From the NCBI GenBank assembly GCA_934661375.1, contig CAKUJH010000011.1, positions 24,795 to 88,794 on the forward strand: 64,000 bases of DNA, in the 5' to 3' direction. The notes beneath the pieces were generated by a model. The model worked only from the letters and a program-made list of their open reading frames with translations, had not been told where the DNA came from and searched no databases. The stretch comes from an uncultured Victivallales bacterium (lineage in GTDB: Bacteria; Verrucomicrobiota; Lentisphaeria; Victivallales; UBA1829). Within the stretch, counting starts at the first letter, position 1. Each line of letters opens with the position of its first letter. Both the position numbers and the translations under genes were made by a program. This document shows, one piece after another, positions 18,919 through 47,179 of this stretch.

Positions 18919-18931
18919 GAAGGATGACGGT

Positions 18932-26523: not shown

Positions 26524-26568
26524 TCTGGACTTTATGTCTTTCGGGTCATATCGTCCAGATTTTTTTTA
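26524..26568. terminator. Bidirectional rho-independent terminator between convergent genes
   Basis: TCTGGAC...GTCCAGA stem followed by a T8 run. Coordinates approximate (+/-2). Confidence 0.55.
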
Positions 26569-27468: not shown

Positions 27469-27482
27469 GAAGATACTCCGTT

Positions 27483-27959
27483 TTATTCCTGCGGGGTGAT
27501 TCCCGGTTCCGTCTGGATTTTCAAAGCAGTTTTCGGATTGTAGCGGTCTGTGTCGCCGGACGCCAGAAGTTTCTTGTAATAATCCTTTTTATATTTCAGA
27601 ATGTTCATCTGTTTCCGGAGATTTTTCATCTGTTCACGCAGAATTTTTTCCTGCTGGAAAATCAGTTCAGCTCGTTCGGGAATGGTGGAATCGCCGCGCT
27701 GACACATGTCGATATAACTTTTCACTCCTTCGATGGAGAGTCCGGTGGAACGCAGACAATGAATGAGTTTCAGCCAGCTGACATTGTAATCAGAAAACAG
27801 CCGGGCGTTTCCTTCCGAGCGGTCGACATCAGGAATCAGTCCGATGTTGTCGTAATAACGGACGGTATACGGAGAAAGTTCCATCATTTCGGCGACCTGC
27901 CGGACGGAATATTTCGGAGTGCGGTCGTGCAGAAAACTGAATGATTTGTTTTTGGACAT
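27483..27959 (-). CDS. MerR family transcriptional regulator
   Basis: YSVRQVAEMMELSPYTVRYYDNIGLIP HTH followed by a coiled-coil dimerisation helix. Confidence 0.85.
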   Translation of the reverse strand: MSKNKSFSFLHDRTPKYSVRQVAEMMELSPYTVRYYDNIGLIPDVDRSEGNARLFSDYNVSWLKLIHCLRSTGLSIEGVKSYIDMCQRGDSTIPERAELIFQQEKILREQMKNLRKQMNILKYKKDYYKKLLASGDTDRYNPKTALKIQTEPGITPQE

Positions 27960-28063
27960 GACGATTTTCTTTCATGGTTTGAAAACTTAGAGCAACTTTA
28001 ATATATCGGCGGCATTTTCATTTGTCAAGCATATCGGGAGAAAAATTTTTTCTGAAAATGATT

Positions 28064-28194: not shown

Positions 28195-28473
28195 ATGGCT
28201 GTGATCGGAAGAAACGGAGGTGCAGATTTGGAGGAAACTTCATTGAATCAGACGGAGTTTCTGTTGAAACGCAATCTGAAGGATGCGGGATTCGGACCGA
28301 AACAGACGGAACGGTTCCTGCAGCTCCGGATGGAAGGCAGAAACCGGGAACTGGAGTTGATGCTGGCGGAACTGCGGGTGTCGCTCCTGAAAAAAGTGCA
28401 TGAAAACCAGAAACGGATCGATTGTCTGGACTATTTGAAAAATAAAATCAAACAGAAGGAAACGGAATCATGA
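28195..28473 (+). CDS. Small hypothetical helical protein (92 aa), first gene of MerR-divergent operon
   Basis: ORF with its stop overlapping the flavodoxin start (ATGA). No family recognised. Confidence 0.4.
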   Translation: MAVIGRNGGADLEETSLNQTEFLLKRNLKDAGFGPKQTERFLQLRMEGRNRELELMLAELRVSLLKKVHENQKRIDCLDYLKNKIKQKETES

Positions 28474-29054
28474 AAAACAAAATGTCAGCTCTTGCCATGG
28501 CCGCCGCAATGTTCACTGTCGGCGGATGCGCCCAGGAAACCGTCGCCGCGGAAAAAGCATCTGCGGAACCGGGAAAAATTCTGATCGCGTATTACTCGTA
28601 CAGCGGCAACACGAAATTCGCGGCGGAAGTGATTCAGAAAGCCACTGGGGGAACGCTGTTCGAAATTGTGCCGGTCAAAGCGTATTCCGCCAATTACAAT
28701 GAATGTGTGGCGCAGGCGAAAAAAGAAATCCGCGCCGGATTCAAACCGGAACTCAAAGCCAATGCGGCAGATTTTGCCAAATATGAGGTGATTTTCGTCG
28801 GTACGCCGAACTGGTGGAGCACCATGGCGCCGCCGGTGCTGACTTTCCTGGCATCGAACAATTTTACCGGAAAGACAGTCATACCGTTTGCAACTCATGG
28901 CGGCGGGGGAATGGCGGACTGCGAAAGCGACATGCACAAGGCTCTGCCGAATGCGAAGTTCGCGAAAGGCGGCGCATTTTCCGGCAGCCGTGTGCGCAGT
29001 TCCGAAGCCGCAATCCGTGATTGGGTGAACAGCGTCGTGGAAATCAAAAAATGA
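28470..29054 (+). CDS. Flavodoxin-family lipoprotein
   Basis: Lipoprotein signal (MAAAMFTVGGC). ILIAYYSYSGNTKFAAEV and FVGTPNWW...ATHGGGG match the flavodoxin fold. Confidence 0.8.
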   Translation: MKNKMSALAMAAAMFTVGGCAQETVAAEKASAEPGKILIAYYSYSGNTKFAAEVIQKATGGTLFEIVPVKAYSANYNECVAQAKKEIRAGFKPELKANAADFAKYEVIFVGTPNWWSTMAPPVLTFLASNNFTGKTVIPFATHGGGGMADCESDMHKALPNAKFAKGGAFSGSRVRSSEAAIRDWVNSVVEIKK

Positions 29055-29062
29055 GGTGAGAC

Positions 29063-30115
29063 ATGAAAACTGTTTTTCTGGGATTCATCCTGTCGGTTTT
29101 CTGTTTCATTCAGATAGAGGCAAAAGAAATGAAAGCATTGAACAGCAAAGAACAGAACATTGTCGTCATTGCCGCAGATACGGCACGCGGCGATATGGAT
29201 GGACTGAAAGCCGCCCTGAACAAAGGTCTGGACGAAGGACTTTCCGTCAATGAAATCAAAGAGATCCTGATCCAGCTGTACGCCTATTGCGGATTCCCGC
29301 GCAGTCTGAACGCCCTCGGCAATTTCATGACTGTGGTGCAGGAACGGGCGGCGAAAGGGATCAAGGATATTCCGGGAAAACTGCCGGGCCCGGCACCCGC
29401 CGGAAAGAGCATTGAGTTCGGAACTGCCAATCAGACCAAACTCTGCGGACGTCCGGTCAAAGGCGCATTGTTCGATTTCGCTCCGGCGATTGATGAATAT
29501 CTGAAAGCGCATCTGTTCGGAGATATTTTCCGTCGTGACAATCTGGACTGGAAGACCCGTGAAATCGCCACCATCGCCGCATTGTCGGTTCTGCCGGGAG
29601 CGGACAGCCAGCTCCAAGCCCACATCGGCATTGGCAAAAACAACGGCGTAACCGATGAACAGGTTGCGGAAATTCTTGCGCTGACAACCGGAAATGAATA
29701 TGGTGTGCCGCGGATCAGTGATTTCCCGGTCGGACAGGAAAACACCGCATATGCCAAGTATTTCAGCGGCAAGTCCTATCTGGCGCGTCTGACCAAAGAT
29801 GACCGTCTGAACGTGCCGGTGGCGAATGTAACGTTTGAGCCGGGCTGCCGCAACAACTGGCACAGTCACACGGGCGGACAGCTGCTGATTGCAGTCGGCG
29901 GCGTCGGGTATTATCAGGAACGCGGCAAGGCGGCGCGCAAGCTGCTGCCGGGCGACGTGGTGGAAATCCCGCCGAATACGGATCACTGGCACGGCGCGGC
30001 GCCGGACAAATGGTTCTCGCATCTGGCGATTGAATGCAATCCGCAGACCAATAAAAACACCTGGCTGGAACCGGTGAGCGACGCCGATTACCAGGCGGCA
30101 ACCCAGGGAAAATAA
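29063..30115 (+). CDS. Secreted carboxymuconolactone decarboxylase (AhpD-like) family protein with C-terminal cupin domain
   Basis: Signal peptide. CMD motif EILIQLYAYCGFPRSLNA. C-terminal cupin with HSHTGGQ...HWHGA. Confidence 0.75.
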   Translation: MKTVFLGFILSVFCFIQIEAKEMKALNSKEQNIVVIAADTARGDMDGLKAALNKGLDEGLSVNEIKEILIQLYAYCGFPRSLNALGNFMTVVQERAAKGIKDIPGKLPGPAPAGKSIEFGTANQTKLCGRPVKGALFDFAPAIDEYLKAHLFGDIFRRDNLDWKTREIATIAALSVLPGADSQLQAHIGIGKNNGVTDEQVAEILALTTGNEYGVPRISDFPVGQENTAYAKYFSGKSYLARLTKDDRLNVPVANVTFEPGCRNNWHSHTGGQLLIAVGGVGYYQERGKAARKLLPGDVVEIPPNTDHWHGAAPDKWFSHLAIECNPQTNKNTWLEPVSDADYQAATQGK

Positions 30116-30119
30116 AATC

Positions 30120-30779
30120 ATGAACCGTCGGGAATTCATCAAATCTTCACTGATCGTTTCCGTCGTGGCGGGAACCGCTGCTGTCGGCGGTTCTCTCCTG
30201 AACGCATTTGCCGCTGAACCTGTGCCGCAGAAAAGGAGAAATGGAAAAATGAAAATTCTGGTGCTTACGGGCAGTCCCCGTAAAAACGGCAATTCCAGTA
30301 CCCTCGCTTCGGAGTTCATCCGCGGCGCGGAGGAAGCCGGACATGAAGTCGTGCGTTTCGACGCTGCGTTCAAAAAAGTGCATCCGTGCATTGCCTGCAA
30401 CCAGTGCGGCATGAACGGTCCGTGTGTATTCAAAGATGACTTTGAATTCGTCCGCAAACACATTGTCGATGCGGACTGCGTGGTGTTTGCGACTCCGATG
30501 TACTATTTTGGAATCTCCGCCCAGCTCAAAGCGGTGATAGACCGTTTTTACGCAATCAACGGCGAGATACACCGTCCGAAGAAAGCCGTGCTGCTGATGA
30601 CGTATGCCAATACCGCGGTTTCGGAAGCGGACCCGATCCGTTCGCATTATGATGTTCTGCTGAAATATCTCGGCTGGAGCGATGCCGGACGGGTGATTGC
30701 GCGGGGTGTCTGGCCGGTCGGCGCAGTCAACCGAACAAAATATCCGGCGCAGGCGTACCAGCTCGGAAAAAATATCTGA
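30120..30779 (+). CDS. Tat-signal flavodoxin-like fold NAD(P)H-dependent FMN reductase / iron-sulfur flavoprotein
   Basis: Twin-arginine motif (MNRREFIKSSLIV...AFA). MKILVLTGSPRKNGNSS and CIACNQCGMNGPC. Confidence 0.75.
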   Translation: MNRREFIKSSLIVSVVAGTAAVGGSLLNAFAAEPVPQKRRNGKMKILVLTGSPRKNGNSSTLASEFIRGAEEAGHEVVRFDAAFKKVHPCIACNQCGMNGPCVFKDDFEFVRKHIVDADCVVFATPMYYFGISAQLKAVIDRFYAINGEIHRPKKAVLLMTYANTAVSEADPIRSHYDVLLKYLGWSDAGRVIARGVWPVGAVNRTKYPAQAYQLGKNI

Positions 30780-30881: not shown

Positions 30882-32627
30882 ATGAACGTGATGGATATAA
30901 AAGGTCCGGAGGATCTGAAAAAGATGGATCGTTCCGAATTTCCGGCACTGGCGCAGGAAATGCGCCGGATGCTGATTGAAAAACTGCACGCGCACGGCGG
31001 ACATGCCGGACCGAACTTCGGTTTTGTGGAGGCAACCATTGCGCTGCATACGGTGTTCAATTCTCCGGTGGATAAATTTGTGTTTGATGTTTCGCATCAG
31101 ACATATCCGCACAAAATGCTGACCGGACGCATGGAAGCGTTTGCCGATCCTGCACATTATGATGATGTTTCCGGATATTCCGAACCCGGTGAATCGCCGC
31201 ACGACCATTTCATTATCGGGCATACTTCGACCAGTATTTCGCTGGCGGCGGGTCTTGCCAAGGCACGGGATCTGCGCAACGAAAAATTCAATGTGATTGC
31301 GGTCATCGGCGACGGCTCGCTGTCCGGCGGGGAAGCGTTTGAAGGTCTGGACAATGTGGCGGAACAGGGAACGAACATGATTATCGTGTTCAATGACAAC
31401 CAGATGTCGATAGCGGAAAACCACGGCGGACTGTACCGGAGTCTGGCGGAACTCCGCCGCACCAACGGAACTTCCCCCTGCAATTATTTCAAGGCGCTCG
31501 GTCTGGATTACCGTTACGTGGCGGAAGGAAACAACGTGGAAAAACTGATTGCCGCGTTTGAGGAAGTCAAGGACATTGACCACCCGGTGGTGGTGCATGT
31601 CAACACCATCAAAGGTTTCGGCTATGCTCCGGCGGTTGCGGACAAGGAAGCGTGGCACTGGACTACGCCCGGATTTGACATTGCGACGGGAAAACGCGAG
31701 GGCGGTGAATGGCTCGGAACCAGAGTGGCGGATCATCTGCTGAAAAAAATGAAGGAAATGCCGGAACTGGTGGTCATCAACGCCGCTGTGCCGTCGATGT
31801 GCGGATTTGACAGAACCCGCCGCGCGCTGGCGGGGAAACAGTTTGTGGACGTCGGCATCTGTGAACCTCATGCCTGCGCGTTTGCCTCCGGCATAGCCAA
31901 AGGCGGCGGACGCCCGGTCTGGAGTGTGATTTCCACATTCATTCAGCGCACATACGATCAGTTGAGTCAGGATCTCTGCATCAACAGCAATCCCGCCGTG
32001 ATTCTGGTTACGACCGGGTCGCTGCTGGGAATGAATGATGTAACGCATCTGGGCTGGTTCGACATTCCGCTGCTGTCCAATATTCCGAACCTGACGTATC
32101 TCTGCCCGACCAGCGAAAAGGAATATTTTGCCATGATGGACTGGGCAATCGCGCAGACCCGTCAGCCGGTGGCGATCCGTCAGCCGGAAAACGGAGTGGC
32201 GGAAAATGAAGTTGCCATTCTGAAGGATTATACCGGCTGCGGCTATGAAATCACCCGTGCCGGCAAAGATGTGGCGGTATTGGGACTTGGCAATTTCCAC
32301 AAGCTCGGCTCCGAACTGCTGGATGCCCTGGCGGCAAAAGGAATCCGCGGAACGCTGGTCAATCCGCGCGGGGCAACGGTTCTGGATGCGGACGTGCTGG
32401 AAAACCTGAAAAAAGAACACCGGCTGACAGTTACGCTGGAAGACGGCGTGATTGACGGCGGATTCGGTGAAAAAATTGCGCGTTATTACGGGACATCCGG
32501 CATGAAGGTTCTGGTCAAAGGTGCGCCGAAACAGTTTGCGGACCGTTATGACTATGACCGCTTCCTGCGTGACTGCGGTTTGACTGTCGGGCAGATGGCG
32601 GATGAAATTGCCGCTGTTCTGGGGTGA
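30882..32627 (+). CDS. dxs: 1-deoxy-D-xylulose-5-phosphate synthase-like (DXS/transketolase family) protein, divergent paralog
   Basis: N-terminus aligns to DXS (GGHAGPNFGFVEATIALHTVFNSPVDKFVFDVSHQTYPHKMLTGR versus the canonical [41 protein letters not shown]). TPP-binding GDGSLSGGEAFEGLDN. 581 aa, shorter than typical DXS. Confidence 0.7.
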   Translation: MNVMDIKGPEDLKKMDRSEFPALAQEMRRMLIEKLHAHGGHAGPNFGFVEATIALHTVFNSPVDKFVFDVSHQTYPHKMLTGRMEAFADPAHYDDVSGYSEPGESPHDHFIIGHTSTSISLAAGLAKARDLRNEKFNVIAVIGDGSLSGGEAFEGLDNVAEQGTNMIIVFNDNQMSIAENHGGLYRSLAELRRTNGTSPCNYFKALGLDYRYVAEGNNVEKLIAAFEEVKDIDHPVVVHVNTIKGFGYAPAVADKEAWHWTTPGFDIATGKREGGEWLGTRVADHLLKKMKEMPELVVINAAVPSMCGFDRTRRALAGKQFVDVGICEPHACAFASGIAKGGGRPVWSVISTFIQRTYDQLSQDLCINSNPAVILVTTGSLLGMNDVTHLGWFDIPLLSNIPNLTYLCPTSEKEYFAMMDWAIAQTRQPVAIRQPENGVAENEVAILKDYTGCGYEITRAGKDVAVLGLGNFHKLGSELLDALAAKGIRGTLVNPRGATVLDADVLENLKKEHRLTVTLEDGVIDGGFGEKIARYYGTSGMKVLVKGAPKQFADRYDYDRFLRDCGLTVGQMADEIAAVLG

Positions 32628-32746
32628 GTTTCCGGCTGAACGTATCTTTTTTTGGAAAAAATACATTTTTTTCTGAAAAAAGAATTGGCATCACGCAACA
32701 GCAAGGAGTAAATTGCAGTCTGTAAAATAAACGACAGAGGGAAGTC

Positions 32747-34075
32747 ATGAAAAAAGGCAGAATATTCGGCTGGAAAACGGGGCGCATTGCCGCCGCGGCG
32801 GTTTTTCTGCTGCTGTATGGTCTGGCGTTTTCCGGGATGTGCGCTGCCGCGGCACCGCTGCTTCATGCACAGTTCGGACCCGCATTGATGCGTTGTCTTG
32901 CGGCGTTTTCCCTGGGGGCGCTGGGGACGGTTCTGGGGATAGTGCTGTTCACTGTTCTGTTCGGACGTTTTTACTGCTCGGTATTCTGTCCATTCGGCAT
33001 ACTGCAGGATGTGATCATCTTTCTGTCGCGGCGGAAAGCGGTGTCTGTGCCGAATCTGCCGGGACTGCGTTATGCGGTTGCGGGCGTGATGCTCGGACTG
33101 CTTTTCTGCGGCTGGAGTGCCGGATTCCTCCTGCTGGATCCGTATACGAATGCAGGCCGCATTACCGGTGCGTTTGCTGCCGGCGGCTTTGTTCCGCTGC
33201 TGGTGATTGCCGCGCTGGCGGTCTGGAAAAAACGGATTTTCTGTACGGCGGTTTGTCCGGTCGGAACTCTGCTGGGGTTGTCTGCCCGGTTCGGCGTGTT
33301 CCGTCTGGCGATCAAGGGACGCTGCGTGAAATGCGGCAAATGTGCCCGGAGCTGTCCGGCAGGCTGTATTGATCCCGCTTCGGGACGGATTGACAACGAA
33401 CGCTGTATCCGCTGCATGAACTGCATCGCGGCATGTCCGTTGGACAGTATCGGATTTGTGCTGCCGGAACACAAGGAAATTCCGGTCAATGAATCCCGGC
33501 GTGCTTTTCTGATAAACGGAGGACTTCTGCTGGCTGGAGCCGCCGCCGGTGCGGCATTGGCGAAAGCGGGTCTCGGCAAGCTGGAAGAATTTGCCCGGAA
33601 TTGGAAAATCCTGCCGCCGGGTGCCGGGAATGCGGAACGTTTTGTTTCCAGATGCACGGGCTGCCAGCTCTGCACGCAGAATTGTCCGGCGAAAATCATT
33701 GTTCCCGCAAAGGGCGGCGGTCCGGTCTCGCTGGATCTGAGCCGCGGACATTGTCATTTCGACTGCAACAGATGCTCGCAGGTGTGTCCGACCGGTGCGA
33801 TCCGTCCGCTGACTTTGGCGGCGAAACAGAAAACCAAAATAGCGGAAGCGCATTTCAATCCGCAGAAGTGCATAGTGTTTCAGAACGACGAAAAATGCGG
33901 ACGCTGTGCGGCGGTCTGTCCGGTTCATGCGGTGCTGCTGCGGAAAAACGGTACACCGCGTCCGGTGAAAACGGATCTCTGCATCGGCTGCGGCGCGTGC
34001 ATGGAAATCTGTCCTGCGCCGGAAAAAGCGATGACCGTTCATGCCATCGAAAAACAGATTCATACGGAGGCGTAA
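32747..34075 (+). CDS. Membrane-bound polyferredoxin (multiple 4Fe-4S clusters; NapH/MauN-like)
   Basis: Several TM helices. Repeated CxxCxxCxxxCP motifs (CVKCGKCARSCP, CIRCMNCIAACP, CTGCQLCTQNCP, CNRCSQVCP, CGRCAAVCP, CIGCGACMEICP). Confidence 0.75.
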   Translation: MKKGRIFGWKTGRIAAAAVFLLLYGLAFSGMCAAAAPLLHAQFGPALMRCLAAFSLGALGTVLGIVLFTVLFGRFYCSVFCPFGILQDVIIFLSRRKAVSVPNLPGLRYAVAGVMLGLLFCGWSAGFLLLDPYTNAGRITGAFAAGGFVPLLVIAALAVWKKRIFCTAVCPVGTLLGLSARFGVFRLAIKGRCVKCGKCARSCPAGCIDPASGRIDNERCIRCMNCIAACPLDSIGFVLPEHKEIPVNESRRAFLINGGLLLAGAAAGAALAKAGLGKLEEFARNWKILPPGAGNAERFVSRCTGCQLCTQNCPAKIIVPAKGGGPVSLDLSRGHCHFDCNRCSQVCPTGAIRPLTLAAKQKTKIAEAHFNPQKCIVFQNDEKCGRCAAVCPVHAVLLRKNGTPRPVKTDLCIGCGACMEICPAPEKAMTVHAIEKQIHTEA

Positions 34076-34081
34076 GCGAAG

Positions 34082-34765
34082 ATGGAGCAGTATAAGGATC
34101 TGGGCTTTGCCAAACTGGATATGACCCGCCGCAGCCGGACCGGTCTGGAGGAGACGGTTTACGGACCGGGCAAAACCTGTGAACAGCTGAAAGCGATACT
34201 GGAAGCGTTCCGGCAGGAAAATACCCCGGTGCTGACCACGAAATGTTCGCCGGAACAGGCGGAATATGTATGCGGCGGTGAGCTGCCGCTGGAATACGAC
34301 CCGGTGTCGCGGACTCTGATTTCGCTGTGGGGTCCGGCACGGAAACTCCATGGCAGAGTGGCGATCTGCACCGGCGGAACCGCGGACATCCCTGTTGCGG
34401 AGGAAGCGGCGCGCACGGCATTGTTTTTCGGTGCGGAAGTCGGACGTTATTATGATGTCGGAGTGGCGGGTCTGCACCGGCTGATGGCGAAGATCGAGGA
34501 AATCCGTCAGGCGGATGTGGTGATTGCCGCTGCCGGAATGGAAGGTGCGCTGGGCAGTGTGCTGGCGGGTCTGGTGGAAGCTCCGCTGATAGCCGTGCCG
34601 ACATCTGTCGGGTACGGAGCCAGTTTCGGCGGAATCGCGCCGCTGCTTGCCATGCTCAATTCCTGTGCGGAAGGCATGAGTGTGGTGAACATAGACAACG
34701 GATTCGGCGCCGGAGTGTTTGCCTGCCGCATGATCCGCATAATGGAAAGGAAAAGCGGGAAATGA
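34082..34765 (+). CDS. larB: LarB, nickel-pincer nucleotide cofactor biosynthesis carboxylase/hydrolase (PurE-like)
   Basis: N-terminal YKDLGFAKLDMTRRSRTGLEE and the PurE-like core VAICTGGTADIPVAEEA...AGMEGALGSVLAGL...VPTSVGYG. Confidence 0.8.
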   Translation: MEQYKDLGFAKLDMTRRSRTGLEETVYGPGKTCEQLKAILEAFRQENTPVLTTKCSPEQAEYVCGGELPLEYDPVSRTLISLWGPARKLHGRVAICTGGTADIPVAEEAARTALFFGAEVGRYYDVGVAGLHRLMAKIEEIRQADVVIAAAGMEGALGSVLAGLVEAPLIAVPTSVGYGASFGGIAPLLAMLNSCAEGMSVVNIDNGFGAGVFACRMIRIMERKSGK

Positions 34766-35958
34766 ACGGGAATATGCTGTATCTGGAAGGAGCGTCCGGG
34801 ATTTCCGGCGATATGACCGTGGCGGCTCTGCTGGATCTGGGCGGCAGCCGGGAAAAACTGGATGCCGTGCTGAAAAGCATGAACCTTGCCGGTTTTGATT
34901 ATGAGATTTCGCGCGGCAACTCGTACGGTATTGCCGGATGCTGTTTCAATGTGAACTTGCATGAAGAACATCATCATACCGTGCACGGACATACCCACGA
35001 ACACCGCAATCTGGCGGCGGTGTACGCAGTGATCGACCGCGGCGAAATGTCTGTACGGGCGCGGGCGCTGGCGAAGAAAATTTTCCGCGCCGTTGCCGAA
35101 GCGGAAGCACAAGCCCATGGCGTTCCTCTGGAACAGGTGCATTTTCATGAAGTCGGGGCGGTCGATTCCATTGTGGATATTGTGGCTGCCGCCGTGCTGG
35201 CGGATGATCTGAACATTACAGAATGTGTGGTCAGCGGTTTGACGGAAGGACAGGGAACGGTGCATTGTCAGCACGGAGATTTGCCCGTGCCGGTTCCGGC
35301 AGTGCTGAATATCGCACAGAAATATGGTATAGCCCTGCGTCCGTCGCCGGTCAGCGGGGAAATGGTAACGCCGACCGGCATAGCCATTGCCGCCGCACTC
35401 CGGACACGCCGGAGTCTGCCGTCCAGCTGCCGGATCGTGAAAACCGGAATCGGGATCGGCAAACGGGATTTCGGTCATGCGAACATTCTCCGGGTCATGC
35501 TGATTGAGGAAGAAACGGTTCCGGAGCAGGTTTATGTTCTGGAAACCAATATTGACGACGCCGCCGGTGAAACTCTGGGGCTTGCCATGGACAGACTGAT
35601 GGCGGCGGGAGCGTCCGATGTTCATTTTATTCCGTGTTTCATGAAGAAGAACCGTCCGGCTTATATCCTGCGGGTCATCGCCGCGGCGTCGGATATTCCT
35701 GCGCTGGAACGGATCATCTTTGAATCGACCACCACGATCGGAATACGGAAACTGCCAGTCGACCGCACCTGCATGGAACGGGAGACCCTGGAAGTTGCAT
35801 TGCCGTACGGCACGGTGTCGGTGAAACGCTGCACGTGGAACGGATTGACCCGGAACTATCCGGAATATGAAAGCGTGAAGGCTTTGGCGGAAAGCACCGG
35901 CAAAGATTTTCAGCTGGTTTTTGCCGCGGCGAAATTGGCGGCGGAGGAACTGAAATGA
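34762..35958 (+). CDS. larC: LarC, nickel insertion (DUF111) protein
   Basis: MLYLEGASGISGDMTVAALLDLG N-terminus, a His-rich EEHHHTVHGHTHEHR segment, and the DUF111 C-terminal domain. Confidence 0.8.
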   Translation: MNGNMLYLEGASGISGDMTVAALLDLGGSREKLDAVLKSMNLAGFDYEISRGNSYGIAGCCFNVNLHEEHHHTVHGHTHEHRNLAAVYAVIDRGEMSVRARALAKKIFRAVAEAEAQAHGVPLEQVHFHEVGAVDSIVDIVAAAVLADDLNITECVVSGLTEGQGTVHCQHGDLPVPVPAVLNIAQKYGIALRPSPVSGEMVTPTGIAIAAALRTRRSLPSSCRIVKTGIGIGKRDFGHANILRVMLIEEETVPEQVYVLETNIDDAAGETLGLAMDRLMAAGASDVHFIPCFMKKNRPAYILRVIAAASDIPALERIIFESTTTIGIRKLPVDRTCMERETLEVALPYGTVSVKRCTWNGLTRNYPEYESVKALAESTGKDFQLVFAAAKLAAEELK

Positions 35959-36785
35959 ACCGTCTGCCGGAAATTCAGCAATATCTGCGGACATTGGCTC
36001 CGGATGGAATTGCGCTGGCATTTTCCGGCGGGGTGGACAGTTCTTTTCTGCTTGCATTGCTGAAAGAGTTGCATCAGGAAAATCCTTTTCCGCTTTTTGC
36101 CCTTACTATGCAAACGGTGTTTCAGTCAGACGAGGAAATTCGCGAAACGCGGGAATTGTCCCGTGAATCCGGCGTTCCGCTGAAACTGTTTTCTTGCGAT
36201 CCGCTGTCGCTTCCGGAAATCCGGAACAATCCGCCGGACCGCTGCTACTGGTGCAAACGATTCATCTTCAAGCAGTTCTTCGCCTTCTGCCGGGAACACA
36301 ACATCCGGAATCTGCTGGACGGAACCAATGCCGATGATCTGCATGTGTACCGTCCCGGACGGCGGGCGCTGGCGGAACTGGGGGTGATTTCTCCGCTGGC
36401 GGAATTCGGTTTCACCAAGGCGGAGATCCGCAAATGTGCTGCGGAACGCGGCCTGCACTGTCATGCCAAACCTTCGATGCCGTGTCTGGCGACCCGTTTT
36501 GAGTATGGGGTCCGCCTGACCCCGGAACGGATCGCACAGGCGGGGAAGGGCGAGGCTCTGCTCCGGAAATATGTGCCGGAAACAGCGGACGTGCGCTTGC
36601 GGGTTCATGGAAAAATGGCACGGATCGAGGTTTCGACGGAAGCATTGGCAGGGGTTCTGGAAAAACGGAAACAGATTGCCGCGGAACTGCATCTGCTCGG
36701 ATTTGAATTCGTTACGCTGGATCTGGAAGGATACCGGTCCGGCTGTTTTGATCAAGGAAAAACATTTACCGAAACGGAGGTTTGA
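35955..36785 (+). CDS. larE: LarE, ATP-dependent sulfur transferase (PP-loop ATPase)
   Basis: PP-loop LAFSGGVDSSFLLAL and the conserved Cys-containing segment CYWCKRFIF. Confidence 0.8.
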   Translation: MNRLPEIQQYLRTLAPDGIALAFSGGVDSSFLLALLKELHQENPFPLFALTMQTVFQSDEEIRETRELSRESGVPLKLFSCDPLSLPEIRNNPPDRCYWCKRFIFKQFFAFCREHNIRNLLDGTNADDLHVYRPGRRALAELGVISPLAEFGFTKAEIRKCAAERGLHCHAKPSMPCLATRFEYGVRLTPERIAQAGKGEALLRKYVPETADVRLRVHGKMARIEVSTEALAGVLEKRKQIAAELHLLGFEFVTLDLEGYRSGCFDQGKTFTETEV

Positions 36786-36786
36786 C

Positions 36787-37002
36787 ATGTCCATTGGTTT
36801 TACGGAAATCATTCTGATTGTGCTGTTTGTGCTGATCGTATTCGGGGCGAAACGCATTCCGGAGCTGGCGCGTGCTTTGGGACGTGCCTCGTATGAGTTC
36901 AAGAAAGCGAAGAATGCGCTGGAAACCGAAGGGCGCGAATTGACGGAAGCCGCAGAAAAAGCGGCGGAAAATGAGGATAAAAAAGAAGAAAAGAAATCCT
37001 GA
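36787..37002 (+). CDS. tatA: Twin-arginine translocase TatA/E
   Basis: MSIGFTEIILIVLFVLIVFGAKRIPELARALGRASYEFKKA. The start coordinate is derived from the stop by protein length. Confidence 0.85.
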   Translation: MSIGFTEIILIVLFVLIVFGAKRIPELARALGRASYEFKKAKNALETEGRELTEAAEKAAENEDKKEEKKS

Positions 37003-37730
37003 TGCCGGAAGAAAACGAAAACTCGCTGGTCTCTCATCTGGAGGCTTTGCGTCGGATGCTGCTGCGGATTGTCATTGTCACAGCTCTGCTGTATCCGGCA
37101 GGCTATGTGCTGGCGCCGTACGCCATTGACGCACTGGTCTGCTGGTGCTGTCCGCCGGAAATCGGCAGACTGCATTATTTTGCGCCGATGGAAGTGTTCT
37201 TTGTGCAGCTGAAACTGGCATTGGTTTTCGCTCTGGCGCTGGCATATCCGTGGAACATGGCGCAAATCTGGGATTTTCTGCGTCCGGCGCTGTATCCGAA
37301 GGAACGCAAGGCGCTGGGGTGGTGGATAGCCGCATCTTCTGTGCTGTTTTTCGGCGGCATGGCATTCTGTGTGGGATTGATTCTGCCGATGCTGATGTCC
37401 TTTTCGGGAGGTTTTGCTTCGGCGGAATTGCAGCCGATGCTGGGATTGGCGAATTTCCTGAATCTGGCGGGCTGGCTGATGCTGGCATTCGGAGTGATGT
37501 TCCAGGCGCCGGTCGTGGTTCTGCTGCTGGTGCGGTTCGGGGTGATTTCTGCGGAATCTCTCCGGAAGAAACGTCCGTACGTCATGACGGTCATTCTGAT
37601 CGTCGCCGCCATTCTGACGCCGCCGGACATCGTGAGCCAGATCATGCTGGCGGTTCCCACCTGGCTGCTGTTTGAAGCCGGTCTTTTCCTTGCAAAACGA
37701 ATGGAGGATAAACAAAATGAACAGACGTGA
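37002..37730 (+). CDS. tatC: Twin-arginine translocase TatC
   Basis: Six-TM protein with the SHLEALRRMLLR N-terminal TatC motif. Confidence 0.9.
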   Translation: MPEENENSLVSHLEALRRMLLRIVIVTALLYPAGYVLAPYAIDALVCWCCPPEIGRLHYFAPMEVFFVQLKLALVFALALAYPWNMAQIWDFLRPALYPKERKALGWWIAASSVLFFGGMAFCVGLILPMLMSFSGGFASAELQPMLGLANFLNLAGWLMLAFGVMFQAPVVVLLLVRFGVISAESLRKKRPYVMTVILIVAAILTPPDIVSQIMLAVPTWLLFEAGLFLAKRMEDKQNEQT

Positions 37731-39009
37731 ATTTCTGAAAAGCGCACTGACCATGGCGGCTCTTGCCCCGGTAACCCGTCTTGCCGCAAAAGCCGGACCG
37801 GACGGTGACAAGGCGTCCGACCTGAAATCCGGATTGCAGATAACGCGCCGCCGTTACAAAAATACCGGCATGACCGTGCCGCTGCTCGGTTTCGGGTGCA
37901 TGAGATTGGCGCGTATTTCGCCGGATAATCCGGCCATCGACTATCCGACGGTGCGCAAAATGATTGCCCGCGCCATGAATGCCGGCTGCAATTACTTTGA
38001 CACCGCTTACATGTACCACGGCGGAGAAAGTGAAAAATGTCTCGGCGAACTGCTGAAGGAATATCCGCGCGATTCCTATTATCTGACGGATAAGATGCCG
38101 GTCTGGTTTGCAAAGAAGGAATCGGATGTCGAGCGGATTTTCAAGGAACAGCTGGCTCGCTGCAAGACCGGTTATTTTGATTTTTACATGCTGCATTCTC
38201 TGAATGCCGCCAACTGGAAACTTGCGCAGAAATTCCATGCGTACGAATTTCTTGCCCGAATGAAGAAAGAAGGCAGGATCCGCAAACTCGGATTCTCGTT
38301 CCATGACACGCCGGAAGTGCTTAAAACCATCGTCAGGGCGCAGCCGTGGGATTTCGCGCAGATTCAGCTGAATTATCTGGACTGGGAACTGTACCGTTCC
38401 CGTGAACAGTATGAGATCCTGACTCAGGCGGAAATCCCGGTCATTGTCATGGAACCGCTGCGCGGCGGAGCGCTGGCGTCGCTGTCTCCGGACGCAACGG
38501 AAATTCTCCGCAGGTCCGATCCGGATTCCAGCAATGCAGCCTGGGCGTTCCGGTATGCCGCCAGCCTGCCGAATGTGCTGTGCGTGCTTTCCGGCATGAC
38601 TTTGCCGGAACACCTGGAAGACAACATCAAGACGTTTTCGCCGTTGAAGCCGCTGAGCGACGGAGAACGCGCCGTGCTGGATGCGGCGTTGAAAGCCCAC
38701 CGCAAGCATCTGACGGTTCCCTGCACGGCGTGCCGTTACTGCCTGCCGTGTCCGGTCGGCGTGGAAATTCCGAAAATCTTCGGAATCTACAATCAATACA
38801 AAATTTCCGGCAACCGCCGGCTGTTCAACAACAATTACCGTGCCATTCCGGAAGAATCCCGCGCGGATGCCTGCGTCAACTGCAAACGCTGTGTGCAGCA
38901 CTGTCCGCAGAAAATTCAGATTCCCGATGAACTGAAGAAGATCGACGCCGAAATGAACGGCGCAAAACTGTCTGCGCTTCAGATGCACGAAACCAAACCC
39001 TATGTCTGA
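37717..39009 (+). CDS. Tat-exported aldo/keto reductase family oxidoreductase with C-terminal 4Fe-4S ferredoxin-like domain
   Basis: Tat signal MNRREFLKSALTMAALAP. AKR core (GFGCMRL..., YFDTAYMYHGGESE). C-terminal CTACRYCLPCP and CVNCKRCVQHCP. GGAGG RBS upstream; start overlaps the end of tatC. Confidence 0.8.
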   Translation: MNRREFLKSALTMAALAPVTRLAAKAGPDGDKASDLKSGLQITRRRYKNTGMTVPLLGFGCMRLARISPDNPAIDYPTVRKMIARAMNAGCNYFDTAYMYHGGESEKCLGELLKEYPRDSYYLTDKMPVWFAKKESDVERIFKEQLARCKTGYFDFYMLHSLNAANWKLAQKFHAYEFLARMKKEGRIRKLGFSFHDTPEVLKTIVRAQPWDFAQIQLNYLDWELYRSREQYEILTQAEIPVIVMEPLRGGALASLSPDATEILRRSDPDSSNAAWAFRYAASLPNVLCVLSGMTLPEHLEDNIKTFSPLKPLSDGERAVLDAALKAHRKHLTVPCTACRYCLPCPVGVEIPKIFGIYNQYKISGNRRLFNNNYRAIPEESRADACVNCKRCVQHCPQKIQIPDELKKIDAEMNGAKLSALQMHETKPYV

Positions 39010-39426
39010 TAAGACGCATCGCCGCATCCGGCCGCGTTCATGGTGAAACATTCCGTTATTTCCGGATGACACGTAAAACGCGGTTTTTGCAGGGAAAAGA
39101 ATAAAAAAGCCGGTTTTTTCTGTCATGGCGACTTGAAAAAGAAAACTTCAAATGCTTTTTTATAGGACGGGAGATCTCATTCGGAGGTTTTCCGGCGGGA
39201 ACGAACGGAATTTCCGGTTCCCCTGAGTTTTGACTTGACCATTTCATAAAACAGAAGCCTGTTGTGATCGGCGGGGAGGTTTATGGACTGAAACATGATT
39301 TTTCGTGACTTTTTCAAAAAGGTCACTGCTGCCGCGTCAGAAGAAGAATTGAGGCGGGAAAAGACAAGTTTTTAAGAAAAGGGCCATAATATTTTGAAAC
39401 AGGCTCTGCGTGAAAGGTTTTTTATT

Positions 39427-40413
39427 ATGCACATGGCTGATGCTTTGCTGTCGCCTGCCGTAAGCGGTACAATGCTGGTTGTTTCCGCTGGTGTGCTGGC
39501 TTGTTCGATCCGGGATATCCGGAAAAATTTTCAGGAGAAACGCATACCCCTGATGGGAGTCGCAGGAGCATTTGTTTTCGCCGCTCAGATGATCAACTTC
39601 GCCATACCGGGGACGGGTTCCAGCGGGCATATCGGCGGAGCGGTTCTGCTGGCGGCTTTGCTGGGGCCGTCGCCGGCTTTTCTGGTGCTGGCGGGAGTCC
39701 TGCTGATACAGGCGCTTTTTTTTGCGGACGGCGGACTGCTGGCGTGGGGATGCAATTTGTTCAACATGGGATTCGTCGGCTGTTTTCTGGCATATCCGTA
39801 TATATTCCGTCCGCTGGCAGGAAAGCAGATGACCCGGAAACGGATCGTGCTGGCTTCTCTGGCGGCGTGCTGTGTGTCGCTGGTGCTGGGCGCGCTGGCG
39901 GTAACGCTGGAAACGCTGGTTTCCGGAATAACGGAATTGCCGTTCCGTGTTTTTGCCGGAGCCATGCTGCCGATTCATCTGGCAATCGGTGTCGGGGAAG
40001 GACTTGCCACGGCGGCGGTTCTGGTGTTCGTGCGGAAAAACCTGCCCGATTGTGAATCCTTGCGGCTGGAAGAGGAAAAACTTTCCCCGGTTCGGCTGTC
40101 CTGCGTGCTGGGACTTGCCGCGCTGGTGCTGGGCGGCGGATTTTCTCTGCTGGCGTCCAGCCGTCCGGATGGTTTGGAATGGGCTTTGGAAAAAACGGCG
40201 GGGACTGCCGAACTGGAGCATTCCGGTGCCATTCATGAATGGTTTGCACGTCTTGCCGAAAAAATTGCACTGCTGCCGGATTATGCGTTCCCGGCGGGAG
40301 AATCATGGTTCGGGACTTCCTTCTCCGGGATCGCGGGGGCGGTGATCTGTGCCGTCGCGCTGATTGCCGCCGGATGGCTGATCTGTCATCGCCGGAAGGT
40401 TTTTGCCGAATGA
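39427..40413 (+). CDS. cbiM: ECF transporter substrate-specific component CbiM/NikM with C-terminal NikN/CbiN-like extension (NikMN-type fusion)
   Basis: Starts MHMADALLSP, as CbiM/NikM proteins do (MHIxDG). Multiple TM helices. An extra ~110-aa C-terminal TM region carries PDGLEW. Confidence 0.75.
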   Translation: MHMADALLSPAVSGTMLVVSAGVLACSIRDIRKNFQEKRIPLMGVAGAFVFAAQMINFAIPGTGSSGHIGGAVLLAALLGPSPAFLVLAGVLLIQALFFADGGLLAWGCNLFNMGFVGCFLAYPYIFRPLAGKQMTRKRIVLASLAACCVSLVLGALAVTLETLVSGITELPFRVFAGAMLPIHLAIGVGEGLATAAVLVFVRKNLPDCESLRLEEEKLSPVRLSCVLGLAALVLGGGFSLLASSRPDGLEWALEKTAGTAELEHSGAIHEWFARLAEKIALLPDYAFPAGESWFGTSFSGIAGAVICAVALIAAGWLICHRRKVFAE

Positions 40414-41165
40414 ATCTGTCATTGCAGGGACTTCAGCAGATGCGCCATACGGCGGCGGACAGTCCGTTTTGCCGGATTGCGCCGCTGCCGAAGGTCTGTT
40501 TCGTGCTGGGTTTTCTGCTGTTGACCGTTTCTTTCGGTCATTATTCCCTGGCGGGCGCTGTGCTGTTCGCCCTGACGCCGTTTCTTCTGGCTGTGCGGGG
40601 CGGGGTTCCGGCCGGCACGCTGTTCCGCCGTGCGCTGACGGCATTGCCGTTTGTGCTGTGTGCGGGAATCGCCAATCTGTTCTTCGACCGTCTGCCGGTT
40701 TCGTTTTACGGACTGGCGGTTCCCGGCGGACTGCTGTCCCTGCTGGTCCTGACCGCCAAAACGCTGGCGTCTGTCGGGATGGTTCTGCTGCTTGCCGCGA
40801 CAACGTCCATGCAGGATATCGCGGGATCGCTGACCCGTCTGCATGTGCCTTGTCTGCTGATTCTGGTGCTGCAGCTGCTGTACCGTTATCTGTTTCTGCT
40901 GGCGGAGGAGGCGGTCAACCTGCGCAACGCCTATTTTCTGCGGAATCCGGGCTGCCGGGTGATTCCGGTCCGGGAATGGGGGACGCTTACGGGACGTCTT
41001 TTCATCAAAAGTGTGGAGCGTGCGGATGCCGTTTATGCCGCCATGCAGTGCCGGCTGTTCCGGGCTGGAGCGCCGCTGCGGGCAGGCAGACAGGGCAGCC
41101 GGAGTGAATGGGCGGGATTTGTGCTGTTGTTTGGAGTATTCTGTTTTTTGAGGATTGTCTTATGA
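40410..41165 (+). CDS. cbiQ: ECF transporter transmembrane (T) component CbiQ/NikQ
   Basis: Start ATGA overlaps the cbiM stop. Polytopic membrane protein in the expected M-Q-O order. Confidence 0.7.
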   Translation: MNLSLQGLQQMRHTAADSPFCRIAPLPKVCFVLGFLLLTVSFGHYSLAGAVLFALTPFLLAVRGGVPAGTLFRRALTALPFVLCAGIANLFFDRLPVSFYGLAVPGGLLSLLVLTAKTLASVGMVLLLAATTSMQDIAGSLTRLHVPCLLILVLQLLYRYLFLLAEEAVNLRNAYFLRNPGCRVIPVREWGTLTGRLFIKSVERADAVYAAMQCRLFRAGAPLRAGRQGSRSEWAGFVLLFGVFCFLRIVL

Positions 41166-41869
41166 GGATCGAACTTCGTGAGCTGGTGCTGGAACGGCCC
41201 GGCGGAATTCGCGCGGTGGACGGCGTATCGCATATATTTGATTCGGAACGCTGCCGGAGTGTGGCTCTGCTGGGGGCGAACGGCGCGGGGAAATCCTCTC
41301 TGCTGGAATGTATTCCCGGTTTGATTCCGGTTCATTCCGGCAGTGTGCTGGTGGACGGCATGGAGGTGGAAAAGAAAAACCTGACCGCAATCCGGCGGAA
41401 AGTCGGCATGGTGTTCCAGAATTCCGACAATCAGCTTTTTTCCCAGACAGTGGAGGAAGACATAGCGTTCGGTCCCGCGAATCTGGGGCTGACGGATGCG
41501 GAAATCCGTGTCCGGGTGCAGGATGCTTTGCGGCAGATGGATATAACCGGCCTGGCTGGGCGGGATGTGACCCGTCTTTCCGGCGGAGAAAAACGACGTG
41601 CCGCGCTTGCCGGCGTGCTGGCGATGTCGCCCGGAGCGATACTGCTGGATGAACCCACTTCCATGCTGGACCCGCGATCCTGCCGGGAGCTTGCCGTTCT
41701 GCTGGACCGGCTTCCCATGCTGAAAATCATGGCGACTCATGACCTGGCATTCGCCCGCCGCGTCTGTCCGGAATGTCTGATCCTCCGGCGCGGAAAAATC
41801 ATTGCCGCGGGGGCGACTGCCGAACTGCTGGAGCGTCACGACCTGCTTCTGGAATGCGGGCTGGAATAA
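41162..41869 (+). CDS. cbiO: ECF transporter ATPase CbiO/NikO
   Basis: Walker A GANGAGKSS, signature LSGGEKRR, Walker B ILLDEPTSMLD. Start overlaps the cbiQ stop. Confidence 0.85.
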   Translation: MRIELRELVLERPGGIRAVDGVSHIFDSERCRSVALLGANGAGKSSLLECIPGLIPVHSGSVLVDGMEVEKKNLTAIRRKVGMVFQNSDNQLFSQTVEEDIAFGPANLGLTDAEIRVRVQDALRQMDITGLAGRDVTRLSGGEKRRAALAGVLAMSPGAILLDEPTSMLDPRSCRELAVLLDRLPMLKIMATHDLAFARRVCPECLILRRGKIIAAGATAELLERHDLLLECGLE

Positions 41870-41887: not shown

Positions 41888-42556
41888 TTACTCCAGCATA
41901 TAGCCGAATCCGCGGACCGTGCGGATCATTTTCTTTTCATAGGGCTTGTCGATTTTTTCGCGCAGACGGAAAATGCAGGCTTCCACGATGTTGCTCTGGG
42001 TGTCGAAGTGGTATTCCCAGACATGTTCCAGAATGGTGGTCTTGGAAATGACCCTGCCGCGGTTGCGCATCATATATTCCAGAAGCTGGAATTCCAGCGG
42101 CTGCAAATCAATCGGGTCGCCCGCACGGGTCACCTTCCGGCGCAGCAGATCCAGGGTCAGATCCCCCGCGGAAAGACTGGTCGGCTCTGCGGAATGGGAG
42201 ACCCGGCGCAGCAGAGCCTGAATCCGTGCCAGCAGTTCCCCGAAGGAAAACGGTTTGGCAAGGTAGTCATCCGCGCCGCATTCCAGTCCCTGAATTTTAT
42301 TCTCCACGGAATCTTTTGCGCTCAGTACCAGCAGGGGCATGTCGATTTTCGCCGCCCGGATTTTACGGATTACGGATAAACCGTCCAGACGCGGCAGCAT
42401 GATGTCCAGCACTGCCAGGTCGAACGGTTCGGTCCGGGCTTTGGACAAACCGGTCTCGCCGTCTTCCGCCAGACAAACCCGGATTCCGGCTTCCTGAAGC
42501 CCTTTGGCAATGAAGGCGGCAGTCGCCTTGTCATCTTCAACGATCAGAATCCTCAT
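41888..42556 (-). CDS. OmpR-family response regulator (orphan; no adjacent histidine kinase)
   Basis: Receiver domain (MRILIVEDD...DLAVLDIMLP...SAKD) plus a winged-helix trans_reg_C (GFGYMLE at the C-terminus). Confidence 0.9.
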   Translation of the reverse strand: MRILIVEDDKATAAFIAKGLQEAGIRVCLAEDGETGLSKARTEPFDLAVLDIMLPRLDGLSVIRKIRAAKIDMPLLVLSAKDSVENKIQGLECGADDYLAKPFSFGELLARIQALLRRVSHSAEPTSLSAGDLTLDLLRRKVTRAGDPIDLQPLEFQLLEYMMRNRGRVISKTTILEHVWEYHFDTQSNIVEACIFRLREKIDKPYEKKMIRTVRGFGYMLE

Positions 42557-46202: not shown

Positions 46203-46228
46203 CAACCTCAAAATGAAAGGATATAAAA

Positions 46229-47167
46229 ATGAACAGCAAATTCTTTGGCGCAGTCATTCTGGGCTGCGCTCTCTCGGCATCGGCACTGGCACAGATTCAA
46301 CTGGAATTCAATCAGAAAAGCAAAATCCTGCCGCTGAAAAAAACAACCGGAGAACTGACTTTCTCCGCCCGTTTCGACAAGGATCAGCGCGACTGCTGGT
46401 ACTGGATCAATTTTCTCAAAGCGGACGGCAAACCGGCGATTTCCGTGCGCATTGACCCGGACAAACTGATTTATTACACAGCGGAAAAGAAGGACGGTCC
46501 GTTCGCCGCCAGCACCGCTTATTCCTATAAAAATCCGCTGAAAATGCGGGAGTATATGAATGTAACGGTCAAAGCAATTGACGGACGTTTCTATCAGACT
46601 TCCATCAACGGACAGGATTTGCCGAATGTTACTGCGGGCAGCGGAGACATCACCGGCGTTCAGCTTGCCGCCCATAACTGCAAAATCACTTACGATAAAC
46701 TGAAATGGACCGAACAGGAAAGCCTTCCGCTGAACCTGCAGCTTTTCGGCAACACCGGTATTCACAGTCAGAAGTATCTGGAACTGCCGAAAGGTGATTT
46801 CGAGCTGAGCTTCCGTTTTCGGGCGGAATTCCGCGGCGGAGACCGGACGCATTACGGAGTCGAAATCGAACCTGCCGACGGCAATATGCAGGAACGGGTT
46901 CAGCTGGTTTTCTGGGACAACGGTTTCCAGATGATTCAGGGCAAAAACAGCAAATGGCTCGGCAATTTCAACAAAGAGGAATTCAACGGGAAAGAACATG
47001 AATTCCGGCTCAAACGCAGCGACGCCGATTTCTACGAAGTCCATATTGACGGCAAGCTGGTCAACAATTTTGAAGCGCTTGTTCCCGCGGACAGCCAGTT
47101 CAAATTCTGGTCCTACGGCAAATGGTTCGTGGAACTGAACGGCATTACGCTGAAATCTGAAAAATAA
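46229..47167 (+). CDS. Secreted beta-sandwich (ConA/lectin-like) hypothetical protein
   Basis: Signal peptide MNSKFFGAVILGCALSASALA. Beta-rich composition. Family uncertain. Confidence 0.5.
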   Translation: MNSKFFGAVILGCALSASALAQIQLEFNQKSKILPLKKTTGELTFSARFDKDQRDCWYWINFLKADGKPAISVRIDPDKLIYYTAEKKDGPFAASTAYSYKNPLKMREYMNVTVKAIDGRFYQTSINGQDLPNVTAGSGDITGVQLAAHNCKITYDKLKWTEQESLPLNLQLFGNTGIHSQKYLELPKGDFELSFRFRAEFRGGDRTHYGVEIEPADGNMQERVQLVFWDNGFQMIQGKNSKWLGNFNKEEFNGKEHEFRLKRSDADFYEVHIDGKLVNNFEALVPADSQFKFWSYGKWFVELNGITLKSEK

Positions 47168-47179
47168 ACCGGAGCCGCC

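Follow-up and report, generated by a model that had tools for sequence, protein, structure and literature searches.

Nickel-pincer cofactor genes beside a predicted Tat-exported aldo/keto reductase-ferredoxin in a Victivallales genome

To our knowledge, the cofactor called nickel-pincer nucleotide (NPN) was known before 2026 only from LarA racemases. The first step of its synthesis is carried out by LarB, a carboxylase/hydrolase acting on nicotinic acid adenine dinucleotide, and LarC is a CTP-dependent nickel insertase. The lar locus of Lactiplantibacillus plantarum reportedly also encodes a fused Lar(MN)QO nickel importer (work of Desguin et al.). About 15% of genomes contain larBCE without larA (PMC11796402). 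A nickel enzyme class of NPN-dependent aldo/keto reductases (AKRs) was first described in June 2026 by Semersky et al., who mined LarC neighbourhoods lacking LarA and found AKRs (PF00248) in 427 (PMC13524815). NphT from Alicyclobacillus cellulosilyticus (PDB 9YEB) adjoins larBCE without larA, binds NPN mononucleotide and transfers hydride, with H144 as nickel ligand, K200 as covalent link and a D47/Y52/K75/H106 tetrad (PMC13524815). Here we describe a locus from an uncultured Victivallales bacterium, located in a 64,000-nucleotide stretch of contig CAKUJH010000011.1 (assembly GCA_934661375.1; this whole stretch is called the window), in which larB, larC and larE lie with tatA and tatC, a gene for an AKR with a ferredoxin-like domain and a predicted twin-arginine translocation (Tat) signal, and genes for an energy-coupling factor (ECF) importer. 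The operon at 32747–39009 and the co-directional nik(MN)QO genes probably constitute a self-contained system for making, loading and exporting an NPN-dependent oxidoreductase. LarA-less lar clusters and NPN-dependent AKRs are already known; the iron-sulfur (Fe-S) fusion, the predicted Tat export and the polyferredoxin partner are new. The genes are as follows.

32747–34075, plus strand: polyferredoxin (NapH-NapG fusion, 442 amino acids); Pfam Fer4_5 and other Fer4 domains, NCBIfam NapH/NapG/NapF
34082–34765, plus strand: larB; NCBIfam NF033503 equivalog, Pfam AIRC
34762–35958, plus strand: larC; TIGR00299, NF052512, Pfam Ni_insertion
35955–36785, plus strand: larE; TIGR00268, PP-loop
36787–37002, plus strand: tatA (71 amino acids); Pfam TatA_B_E, TIGR01411
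37002–37730, plus strand: tatC (242 amino acids); Pfam TatC E = 5e-55, TIGR00945 160 bits against a cut-off of 132.7
37717–39009, plus strand: AKR-ferredoxin (430 amino acids); Aldo_ket_red E = 3e-37, Fer4_9, Fer4_8, Fer4_17
39010–39426, no strand: non-coding gap of 417 nt between the AKR gene and nik(MN)
39427–40413, plus strand: nik(MN); Pfam CbiM E = 1e-56 and PDGLE E = 3e-27
40410–41165, plus strand: nikQ/cbiQ, ECF T component; Pfam CbiQ, TIGR02454 111.2 bits (cut-off 111.8)
41162–41869, plus strand: nikO/cbiO, ECF ATPase; Pfam ABC_tran; about 190–200 bits with the NCBIfam ECF_ATPase and cbiO models, less than the cut-off of each

The seven plus-strand genes at 32747–39009 are tightly spaced and mostly translationally coupled, either overlapping or leaving no more than 6 nt between them; tatC overlaps the start of the AKR gene by 14 nt. 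The nik(MN), nikQ and nikO genes overlap one another. An earlier note on this DNA, drawn up from the letters alone, had named larB/C/E, tatA/C, a Tat-signal AKR and an ECF importer, and Pfam and NCBIfam scans recovered the entire set, co-linear on the plus strand at 34082–41869, with starts corrected to 36787 (tatA), 37717 (AKR), 39427 (nik(MN)), 40410 (nikQ) and 41162 (nikO). The polyferredoxin gene had been omitted; it ends 6 nt 5' of larB and forms one unit with it. A promoter-like site (32685–32714) is present 5' of the polyferredoxin gene and after dxs (30882–32627), which marks the upstream border and encodes a bona fide DXS (NF008968, 837 bits). Membership of dxs in the system was rejected, since it scores as a true DXS and is not conserved beside the cluster elsewhere. 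The downstream border is formed by an OmpR-type response regulator gene (41888–42556, minus strand) that is convergent with nikO. The open reading frame (ORF) beside this regulator gave no kinase-domain match and a LacI gene is found there on the opposite strand; at the corresponding place in a related locus (L001) there is a histidine kinase and regulator pair.

As the earlier note had stated, larB, larC and larE form the complete NPN biosynthesis set, with all three products scoring above the NCBIfam equivalog cut-offs. LarB reached 272 bits (NF033503, cut-off 175). LarC consists of LarC1 and LarC2 in one polypeptide (196 bits with TIGR00299, cut-off 90; 137 bits with NF052512, cut-off 50; Ni_insertion E = 2.8e-130) and includes the His-rich stretch HEEHHHTVHGHTHEH. 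LarE scored 250 bits (TIGR00268, cut-off 150) and has an SGGVDS PP-loop, C97xxC100 and C177. Because these cysteines match the CXXC-C motif of Thermotoga maritima LarE, which is of the [4Fe-4S]-dependent catalytic type (PMC9283937), the window LarE is predicted to be an ATP-dependent sulfur insertase of this catalytic type, not of the sacrificial L. plantarum type. The window and the L. plantarum lar locus share the proximity of larB/C/E to a fused M-N type ECF metal importer. They differ in that the window is without LarA, has LarC as one polypeptide and LarE of the predicted [4Fe-4S] type, and its presumed cofactor user has another fold and a predicted export signal.

The absence of LarA from the window, also claimed before, held when three LarA homologs, taken from LarA-linked clusters in plasmid records, were compared by tblastn with all six frames: the best E value was 0.048 and no real match was obtained. 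A Pfam scan of 41 window ORFs, every picked ORF of at least 380 amino acids among them, gave no Lar_N domain. Since the borders of the unit, dxs and the convergent regulator gene, lie inside the window, a larA gene just outside it in the same operon is excluded; one at a distant place in the genome may still exist. LarA was also found in none of about 100 related loci, comprising 82 AKR loci and 17 LarC loci.

The candidate user of the cofactor is the AKR-ferredoxin. Its gene is located behind a GGAGGA ribosome-binding site and its N-terminus, MNRREFLKSALTMAALAPVTRLAAKA, agrees with the Tat pattern of S/T-R-R-x-F-L-K, then a run of hydrophobic residues and an AxA-like cleavage site, so that the protein is predicted to be exported by Tat with a signal peptide of approximately residues 1–26. 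A twin-arginine signal is present in all AKR orthologs from Lentisphaerota and Gastranaerophilales. It is conserved in 29 orthologs, some of which are lipoproteins. The C-terminal ferredoxin-like domain carries two [4Fe-4S]-type motifs, at residues 336–346 and 386–397. Both had been described as CxxCxxCxxxCP, which is right for the second (CVNCKRCVQHCP) and wrong for the first, CTACRYCLPCP, where the spacing is Cx2Cx2Cx2CP and one residue shorter. The catalytic tetrad D95/Y100/K126/H160 is invariant in 84 family members. The AlphaFold model (pLDDT 80.5) is a generic AKR TIM barrel for which Foldseek gave TM-scores of about 0.75–0.81 with Tm1743, AKR11C1 and AKR14A1, Tm1743 reaching 0.81; the PDB library used (cut-off April 2026) was without 9YEB, so these scores confirm the generic AKR fold alone. 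The AKR-ferredoxin family comprises 1,102 clusters at 50% identity (E ≤ 1e-30). Published work on Fe-S-fused or Tat-exported AKRs was not found in literature searches, and the main text of the NphT paper makes no mention of ferredoxin, 4Fe-4S, twin-arginine or periplasm (PMC13524815).

The window AKR resembles NphT in having an AKR TIM barrel, larBCE neighbours without larA, a D/Y/K/H tetrad and a Ser/Thr-x-His sequence at the end of strand 5. For the comparison, residues 6–157 of 9YEB were taken from its alignment to a neighbouring second AKR, and NphT homologs with numbering equal to that of the paper were used. By phmmer coordinates, MAFFT and hhalign the strand-5 motif LGFS194-F-H196-D of the window AKR aligns with IGIT142-G-H144-G of NphT, which makes H196 a putative nickel ligand, the equivalent of H144; the NADP-binding Tm1743 has IGVSNFD at this position. 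The tetrad residues D95/Y100/K126/H160 align with D47/Y52/K75/H106. The hhalign match to NphT has a probability of 97.7% (E = 1.5e-12) and covers residues 45–236 only. On strand 7 the window AKR reads VIVM245-E246-PLRGG, compared to RVI199-K200-AIAKGP in NphT homologs and LVAYSPLRR in Tm1743. The stacking position, a Tyr in canonical AKRs, is hydrophobic in the window AKR, where M245 corresponds to NphT I199. By sequence score the window AKR is closer to ordinary AKRs (phmmer, 58 bits with Tm1743 vs 25 bits with 9YEB). A PDB search with a 69-residue fragment of it returned noise matches only, and one with a C-terminal fragment returned none. In the plasmid collection AKR matches were sparse and no NphT-like AKR was found.

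There are also differences. The window AKR has an Fe-S domain, a predicted signal peptide and a putative polyferredoxin partner, none of which belongs to NphT, a cytoplasmic protein of about 290 amino acids. The chemistry of NphT is a redox-neutral disproportionation, whereas the Fe-S tail of the window AKR suggests net electron exchange. Use of the cofactor by the AKR had been offered earlier as a guess. With the NphT precedent, the H196 match and the recurring linkage to lar genes, it is now the best explanation, in which we place moderate confidence.

The recurrence of this linkage was examined in two samples of loci. The closest homologs of the AKR were found in metagenome-assembled genomes of Lentisphaeria and Victivallaceae from gut and rumen, the best match in the genome collection being 84% identical. 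In an AKR-centred sample of 82 distinct genome loci, with lar genes scored within 10 kb, the neighbours were:

AKR with Tat signal, 29 loci: polyferredoxin 21, tatC 13, tatA 15, lar 5, nik(MN) 2
AKR without signal, 53 loci: polyferredoxin 0, tatC 0, lar 2, nik(MN) 1

The lar genes adjoin the AKR in 7 of the 82 loci, all from Lentisphaerota and in several gene orders. Among LarC-centred metagenome loci the AKR is adjacent in 7 of 17 and LarA in none. Together with Clostridium butyricum, these loci answer the question raised in the earlier note of whether the AKR recurs with lar genes elsewhere: it does. The arrangements are:

L001, L031 (closest relatives): polyferredoxin-larC-larE-tatA-tatC-AKR-nikMNQO, without larB
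L004, L005: polyferredoxin-larC-larE-AKR
L010: polyferredoxin-larC-AKR
L017, L093, L104: larC-AKR
L095: larC-tatC-AKR
L024: flavodoxin-larB-larC-larE-AKR, AKR without signal
L099 (distant, unrelated metagenome lineage): tatC-larB-larC-polyferredoxin-AKR-larE, AKR 37% identical to that of the window and a Tat lipoprotein
C. butyricum megaplasmid NZ_CP013238 (the one examined in detail): flavodoxin-larB-larC-larE-ECF(MN)-cbiQ-ATPase-AKR

The varied gene orders argue against simple inheritance of one block. In C. butyricum, all nine LarC-bearing megaplasmids also carry the AKR. On NZ_CP013238 it is a cytoplasmic member of the same family, 372 amino acids long and 38% identical to the window AKR; it contains GFSFHD, VMEPV and a pair of Cys motifs. 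For L001 and L031, larB may lie elsewhere in the genome or another pincer precursor may be used. In L099, the gene at 6605–7849, two genes upstream of the cluster, encodes a DUF362 protein for which Pfam detected a Tat signal.

In Bacillus subtilis tatAd-tatCd adjoins phoD, forming a substrate-linked minimal Tat pair, and glucose-fructose oxidoreductase of Zymomonas is exported by Tat with its cofactor already loaded in the cytoplasm. The window resembles the former in having genes for a minimal TatA-TatC pair next to the gene of a predicted substrate, and the latter in that, by our proposal, the folded protein would leave the cytoplasm with a nicotinamide-type cofactor inserted there beforehand. 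It differs from both since the cofactor would be NPN plus Fe-S clusters and at least two operon proteins appear to need Tat.

The second of these proteins is the polyferredoxin. No other gene neighbours the Tat-signal AKRs of this family as constantly as that of the polyferredoxin (21 of 29 loci vs 0 of 53 for signal-less AKRs). Its NCBIfam matches are NapH (59–237), NapG (246–432) and NapF (285–424). Hydropathy analysis gave NapH-type helices at 14–32, 54–72, 111–129 and 141–159 and a fifth helix at 253–271. CX3CP motifs occur at 77 and 166, two [4Fe-4S] motifs (193, 220) are predicted to be cytoplasmic, and four further ones (303, 336, 375 and 412) are predicted to be on the periplasmic side. 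An internal twin-arginine motif, SRRAFL (residue 251), directly precedes helix 5, and the RR pair is kept in 22 of 22 homologs. NapH-NapG fusion polyferredoxins form a family that is jointly inserted by Sec and Tat (Tooke et al. 2017, bioRxiv 10.1101/111781). The window protein appears to belong to this dual Sec/Tat family, with which it shares NapH helices, CX3CP motifs, cytoplasmic clusters, the RR pair before helix 5 and a four-cluster NapG-like domain. In contrast to NapGH it is encoded without nap genes, and its partner would be the AKR-ferredoxin, not NapC, NapB or NapA; the cytoplasmic [4Fe-4S] motifs number two, vs three reported for the MLMS-1 protein (bioRxiv 10.1101/111781). Because of the AKR signal and the polyferredoxin RR motif, tatA and tatC would sit in the operon between genes for two Tat-dependent proteins.

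The proposed sequence of events starts with Nik(MN)QO, which would bring nickel into the cell. In the cytoplasm, LarB, the Fe-S type LarE and LarC would turn nicotinic acid adenine dinucleotide into NPN. The apo AKR would there take up two [4Fe-4S] clusters and NPN, the latter bound non-covalently with H196 as the fourth nickel ligand. The folded holoenzyme would then be exported by TatA and TatC of the operon itself, and the same translocase would insert helix 5 of the polyferredoxin and move its four-cluster NapG-like domain to the periplasmic side. In the periplasm the AKR site (D95, Y100, K126, H160) would shift hydride between a carbonyl/alcohol substrate, probably a sugar or aldehyde, and the bound NPN. 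Since free NAD(P)H is absent from the periplasm, a bound, non-exchangeable hydride carrier would make sense there. The Fe-S tail of the AKR points to a coupling between hydride chemistry and carriers of single electrons: the two clusters would link it to the polyferredoxin and thence to quinol or a cytoplasmic donor or acceptor, with electrons flowing in one direction or the other.

Several observations speak against NPN binding by the AKR. The covalent lysine K200 of NphT is replaced by E246 in the window AKR, and Glu is found in 83 of 84 family members; this match rests on MAFFT and Tm1743 alignments, as hhalign stops short of strand 7. With Glu instead of Lys, NPN binding would therefore be non-covalent, and we know of no AKR for which such binding has been shown, nor of any NPN enzyme that exchanges single electrons with Fe-S clusters. 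The window AKR appears to fall in the class with His and without Lys of Semersky et al.; among lar-linked AKRs, His and Lys occur together in 34% and His alone in 40% (PMC13524815). The strand-5 His extends beyond lar-linked members: all 84 members collected and 146 of the 150 best representatives have it, and most members that bear it are without lar genes nearby. The phmmer alignment to NADPH-dependent 2,5-diketogluconate reductase A also runs through this position. Because the His is family-wide and an NADPH enzyme aligns through the same position, the His alone proves little. In the genome scan, lar genes were missing within 10 kb from all of about 50 loci that belong to Clostridia, Spirochaetota, Synergistota and further phyla, and from all nine Gastranaerophilales loci with AKR, polyferredoxin and tatC. 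Three loci (L096, L097, L106) have larBCE alone, among housekeeping genes.

Much of this evidence would also fit a different explanation, in which the lar genes and importer serve another NPN enzyme elsewhere, either a LarA homolog or a protein of other fold, and the AKR-ferredoxin is an unrelated periplasmic Fe-S oxidoreductase. The AKR would then hold a tight NAD(P), comparable to glucose-fructose oxidoreductase of Zymomonas, or no nicotinamide-type cofactor, and its adjacency to the lar genes would reflect co-regulation or drift within Lentisphaerota. The 75 of 82 family loci without lar genes nearby, the loci with larBCE alone, the missing covalent lysine and the family-wide His, through which the NADPH-enzyme alignment passes as well, are in line with such an arrangement, and LarA homologs occur commonly in Planctomycetota, a related phylum (PMC11770544). 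However, at least seven different lar-linked arrangements, some of them without polyferredoxin or Tat genes, share a single gene, that of the AKR. In L099 it is located between larC and larE, and in C. butyricum an AKR with 38% identity closes the larBCE-nickel importer operon. LarA is missing from all of the related loci. Furthermore, bound NAD(P)H would need a flavin to deliver single electrons to Fe-S clusters, and the need for some converter stays. We regard this explanation as unlikely.

The reading in which the window AKR uses NPN can be extended to the whole AKR-ferredoxin family. All members would then be NPN-dependent, with NPN acting in a flavin-like manner by converting hydride to single electrons that pass via the [4Fe-4S] clusters and, in Tat-exported members, on to the polyferredoxin. 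If this held, an NPN enzyme outside the cytoplasm and linked to electron transport would exist for the first time, and some of the approximately 15% of genomes in which the cofactor is made without LarA would be accounted for. We put this extension forward only tentatively and rather doubt it.

The AKR might also bind another pincer cofactor such as NPAD, the adenine dinucleotide form, in a cavity that retains room for the AMP part. According to Semersky et al., NPAD is used by an ornithine cyclodeaminase and might be bound by AKR homologs whose cavities are extended (PMC13524815). Besides the missing lysine for covalent attachment, the clusters of the closest relatives L001 and L031 are in agreement with NPAD, as they are without larB and LarB is the AMP-removing enzyme. 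The window itself, however, encodes a LarB of equivalog level, as do L024, L099 and C. butyricum, and we consider NPAD an improbable cofactor here.

The 417-nt gap between the AKR gene and nik(MN) is 98% identical in a conspecific contig (L092). At the position of this gap, between the exported AKR and nik(MN), a second, signal-less AKR-ferredoxin of 382 amino acids is encoded in L031 (11242–12414), L025 (11113–12258) and L006 (11242–12384), and a 77-residue remnant of it in L001 (11242–11475). This protein is 21.5% identical to the first AKR and has the His and Lys of the NphT motif (IGLSSHN, DVMKVFAGG), but Asp and His stand in place of the catalytic Tyr and Lys. From this comparison, the window appears to have lost the second AKR-ferredoxin gene at 39010–39426.

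The importer genes behind the gap encode, as claimed earlier, a NikM with NikN fused to it (CbiM and PDGLE in one polypeptide by Pfam), followed by CbiQ and the ECF ATPase. The N-terminus of Nik(MN) is MHMADA, with an N-terminal Met-His, and a GSSGH motif is present. Nik(MN) is 48% identical to the ECF permease of the C. butyricum lar cluster, where the same pairing of lar genes and importer bears out the linkage that had been pointed out in the window. Cobalt as the transported metal (CbiMNQO, unrelated to the lar genes) is suggested by the best NCBIfam matches, all named cobalt transporter CbiM/CbiQ/CbiO and all below cut-offs, and by the gap, which makes the importer a separate transcription unit. 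With Rfam, no riboswitch of the cobalamin or any other type was found in the window or in the 417-nt gap, and the gap matched no Rfam family. A fused PDGLE domain takes the place of a separate CbiN. The same transporter follows lar and AKR genes in L001, L031 and L092, and also an AKR pair without nearby lar genes in L025. With the importer of C. butyricum encoded between the larE and AKR genes, and a fused Lar(MN)QO nickel importer reportedly encoded in the lar locus of L. plantarum, we deem a cobalt importer without relation to the lar genes very unlikely.

From this locus a far larger branch of AKRs comes into view, in which the same site is wired to Fe-S clusters and some members are predicted to be Tat-exported and to pair with a NapGH-like membrane polyferredoxin. 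If the AKR indeed uses NPN, the nickel-pincer enzyme class would extend outside the cell membrane into the periplasm, its chemistry would be coupled to electron transport, and there would be an explanation for a common group of gut-anaerobe proteins misannotated as 'aldo/keto reductases'. C. butyricum is culturable and has its cytoplasmic AKR in a clean larBCE-importer-AKR operon, which makes it suitable as a test system.

Upstream of the operon, the following genes were noted by Pfam matches and by their recurrence near paralogous AKRs.

28470–30779, plus strand: possible accessory genes, with dxs between them and the operon
28470–29054: flavodoxin-like lipoprotein
29063–30115: exported CMD-cupin protein with a Sec signal
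30120–30779: FMN_red flavoprotein with its own Tat signal, MNRREFIKSS, 2 kb upstream, the third Tat signal near the operon

The flavodoxin-like/CMD-cupin/FMN_red trio recurs beside paralogous AKR-ferredoxin genes in L019, L022, L033 and L036, and a flavodoxin gene precedes larB in L024 and in C. butyricum.

Elsewhere in the window, a Bat-like cluster of the aerotolerance type (16122–25681) encodes a MoxR ATPase, a DUF58 protein, a domainless 309-residue ORF and a 2249-residue VWA and TPR protein, the last gene being an unusually large fusion. A Rho termination factor of 705 amino acids (51400–53517, minus strand) is extended at its N-terminus by about 290 residues ahead of Rho_N. ORFs that gave no Pfam match at E ≤ 1e-5 are located at 46208–50059 (minus strand, 1283 amino acids), 14313–15614 (plus strand, 433 amino acids), 26569–27543 (plus strand, 324 amino acids) and 11006–11998 (minus strand, 330 amino acids). 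The G+C fraction is 0.47–0.50 at 10001–14000 and 26001–28000 vs 0.55–0.60 in the flanks, and the cumulative GC skew climbs steadily to about 44 kb and is flat thereafter.

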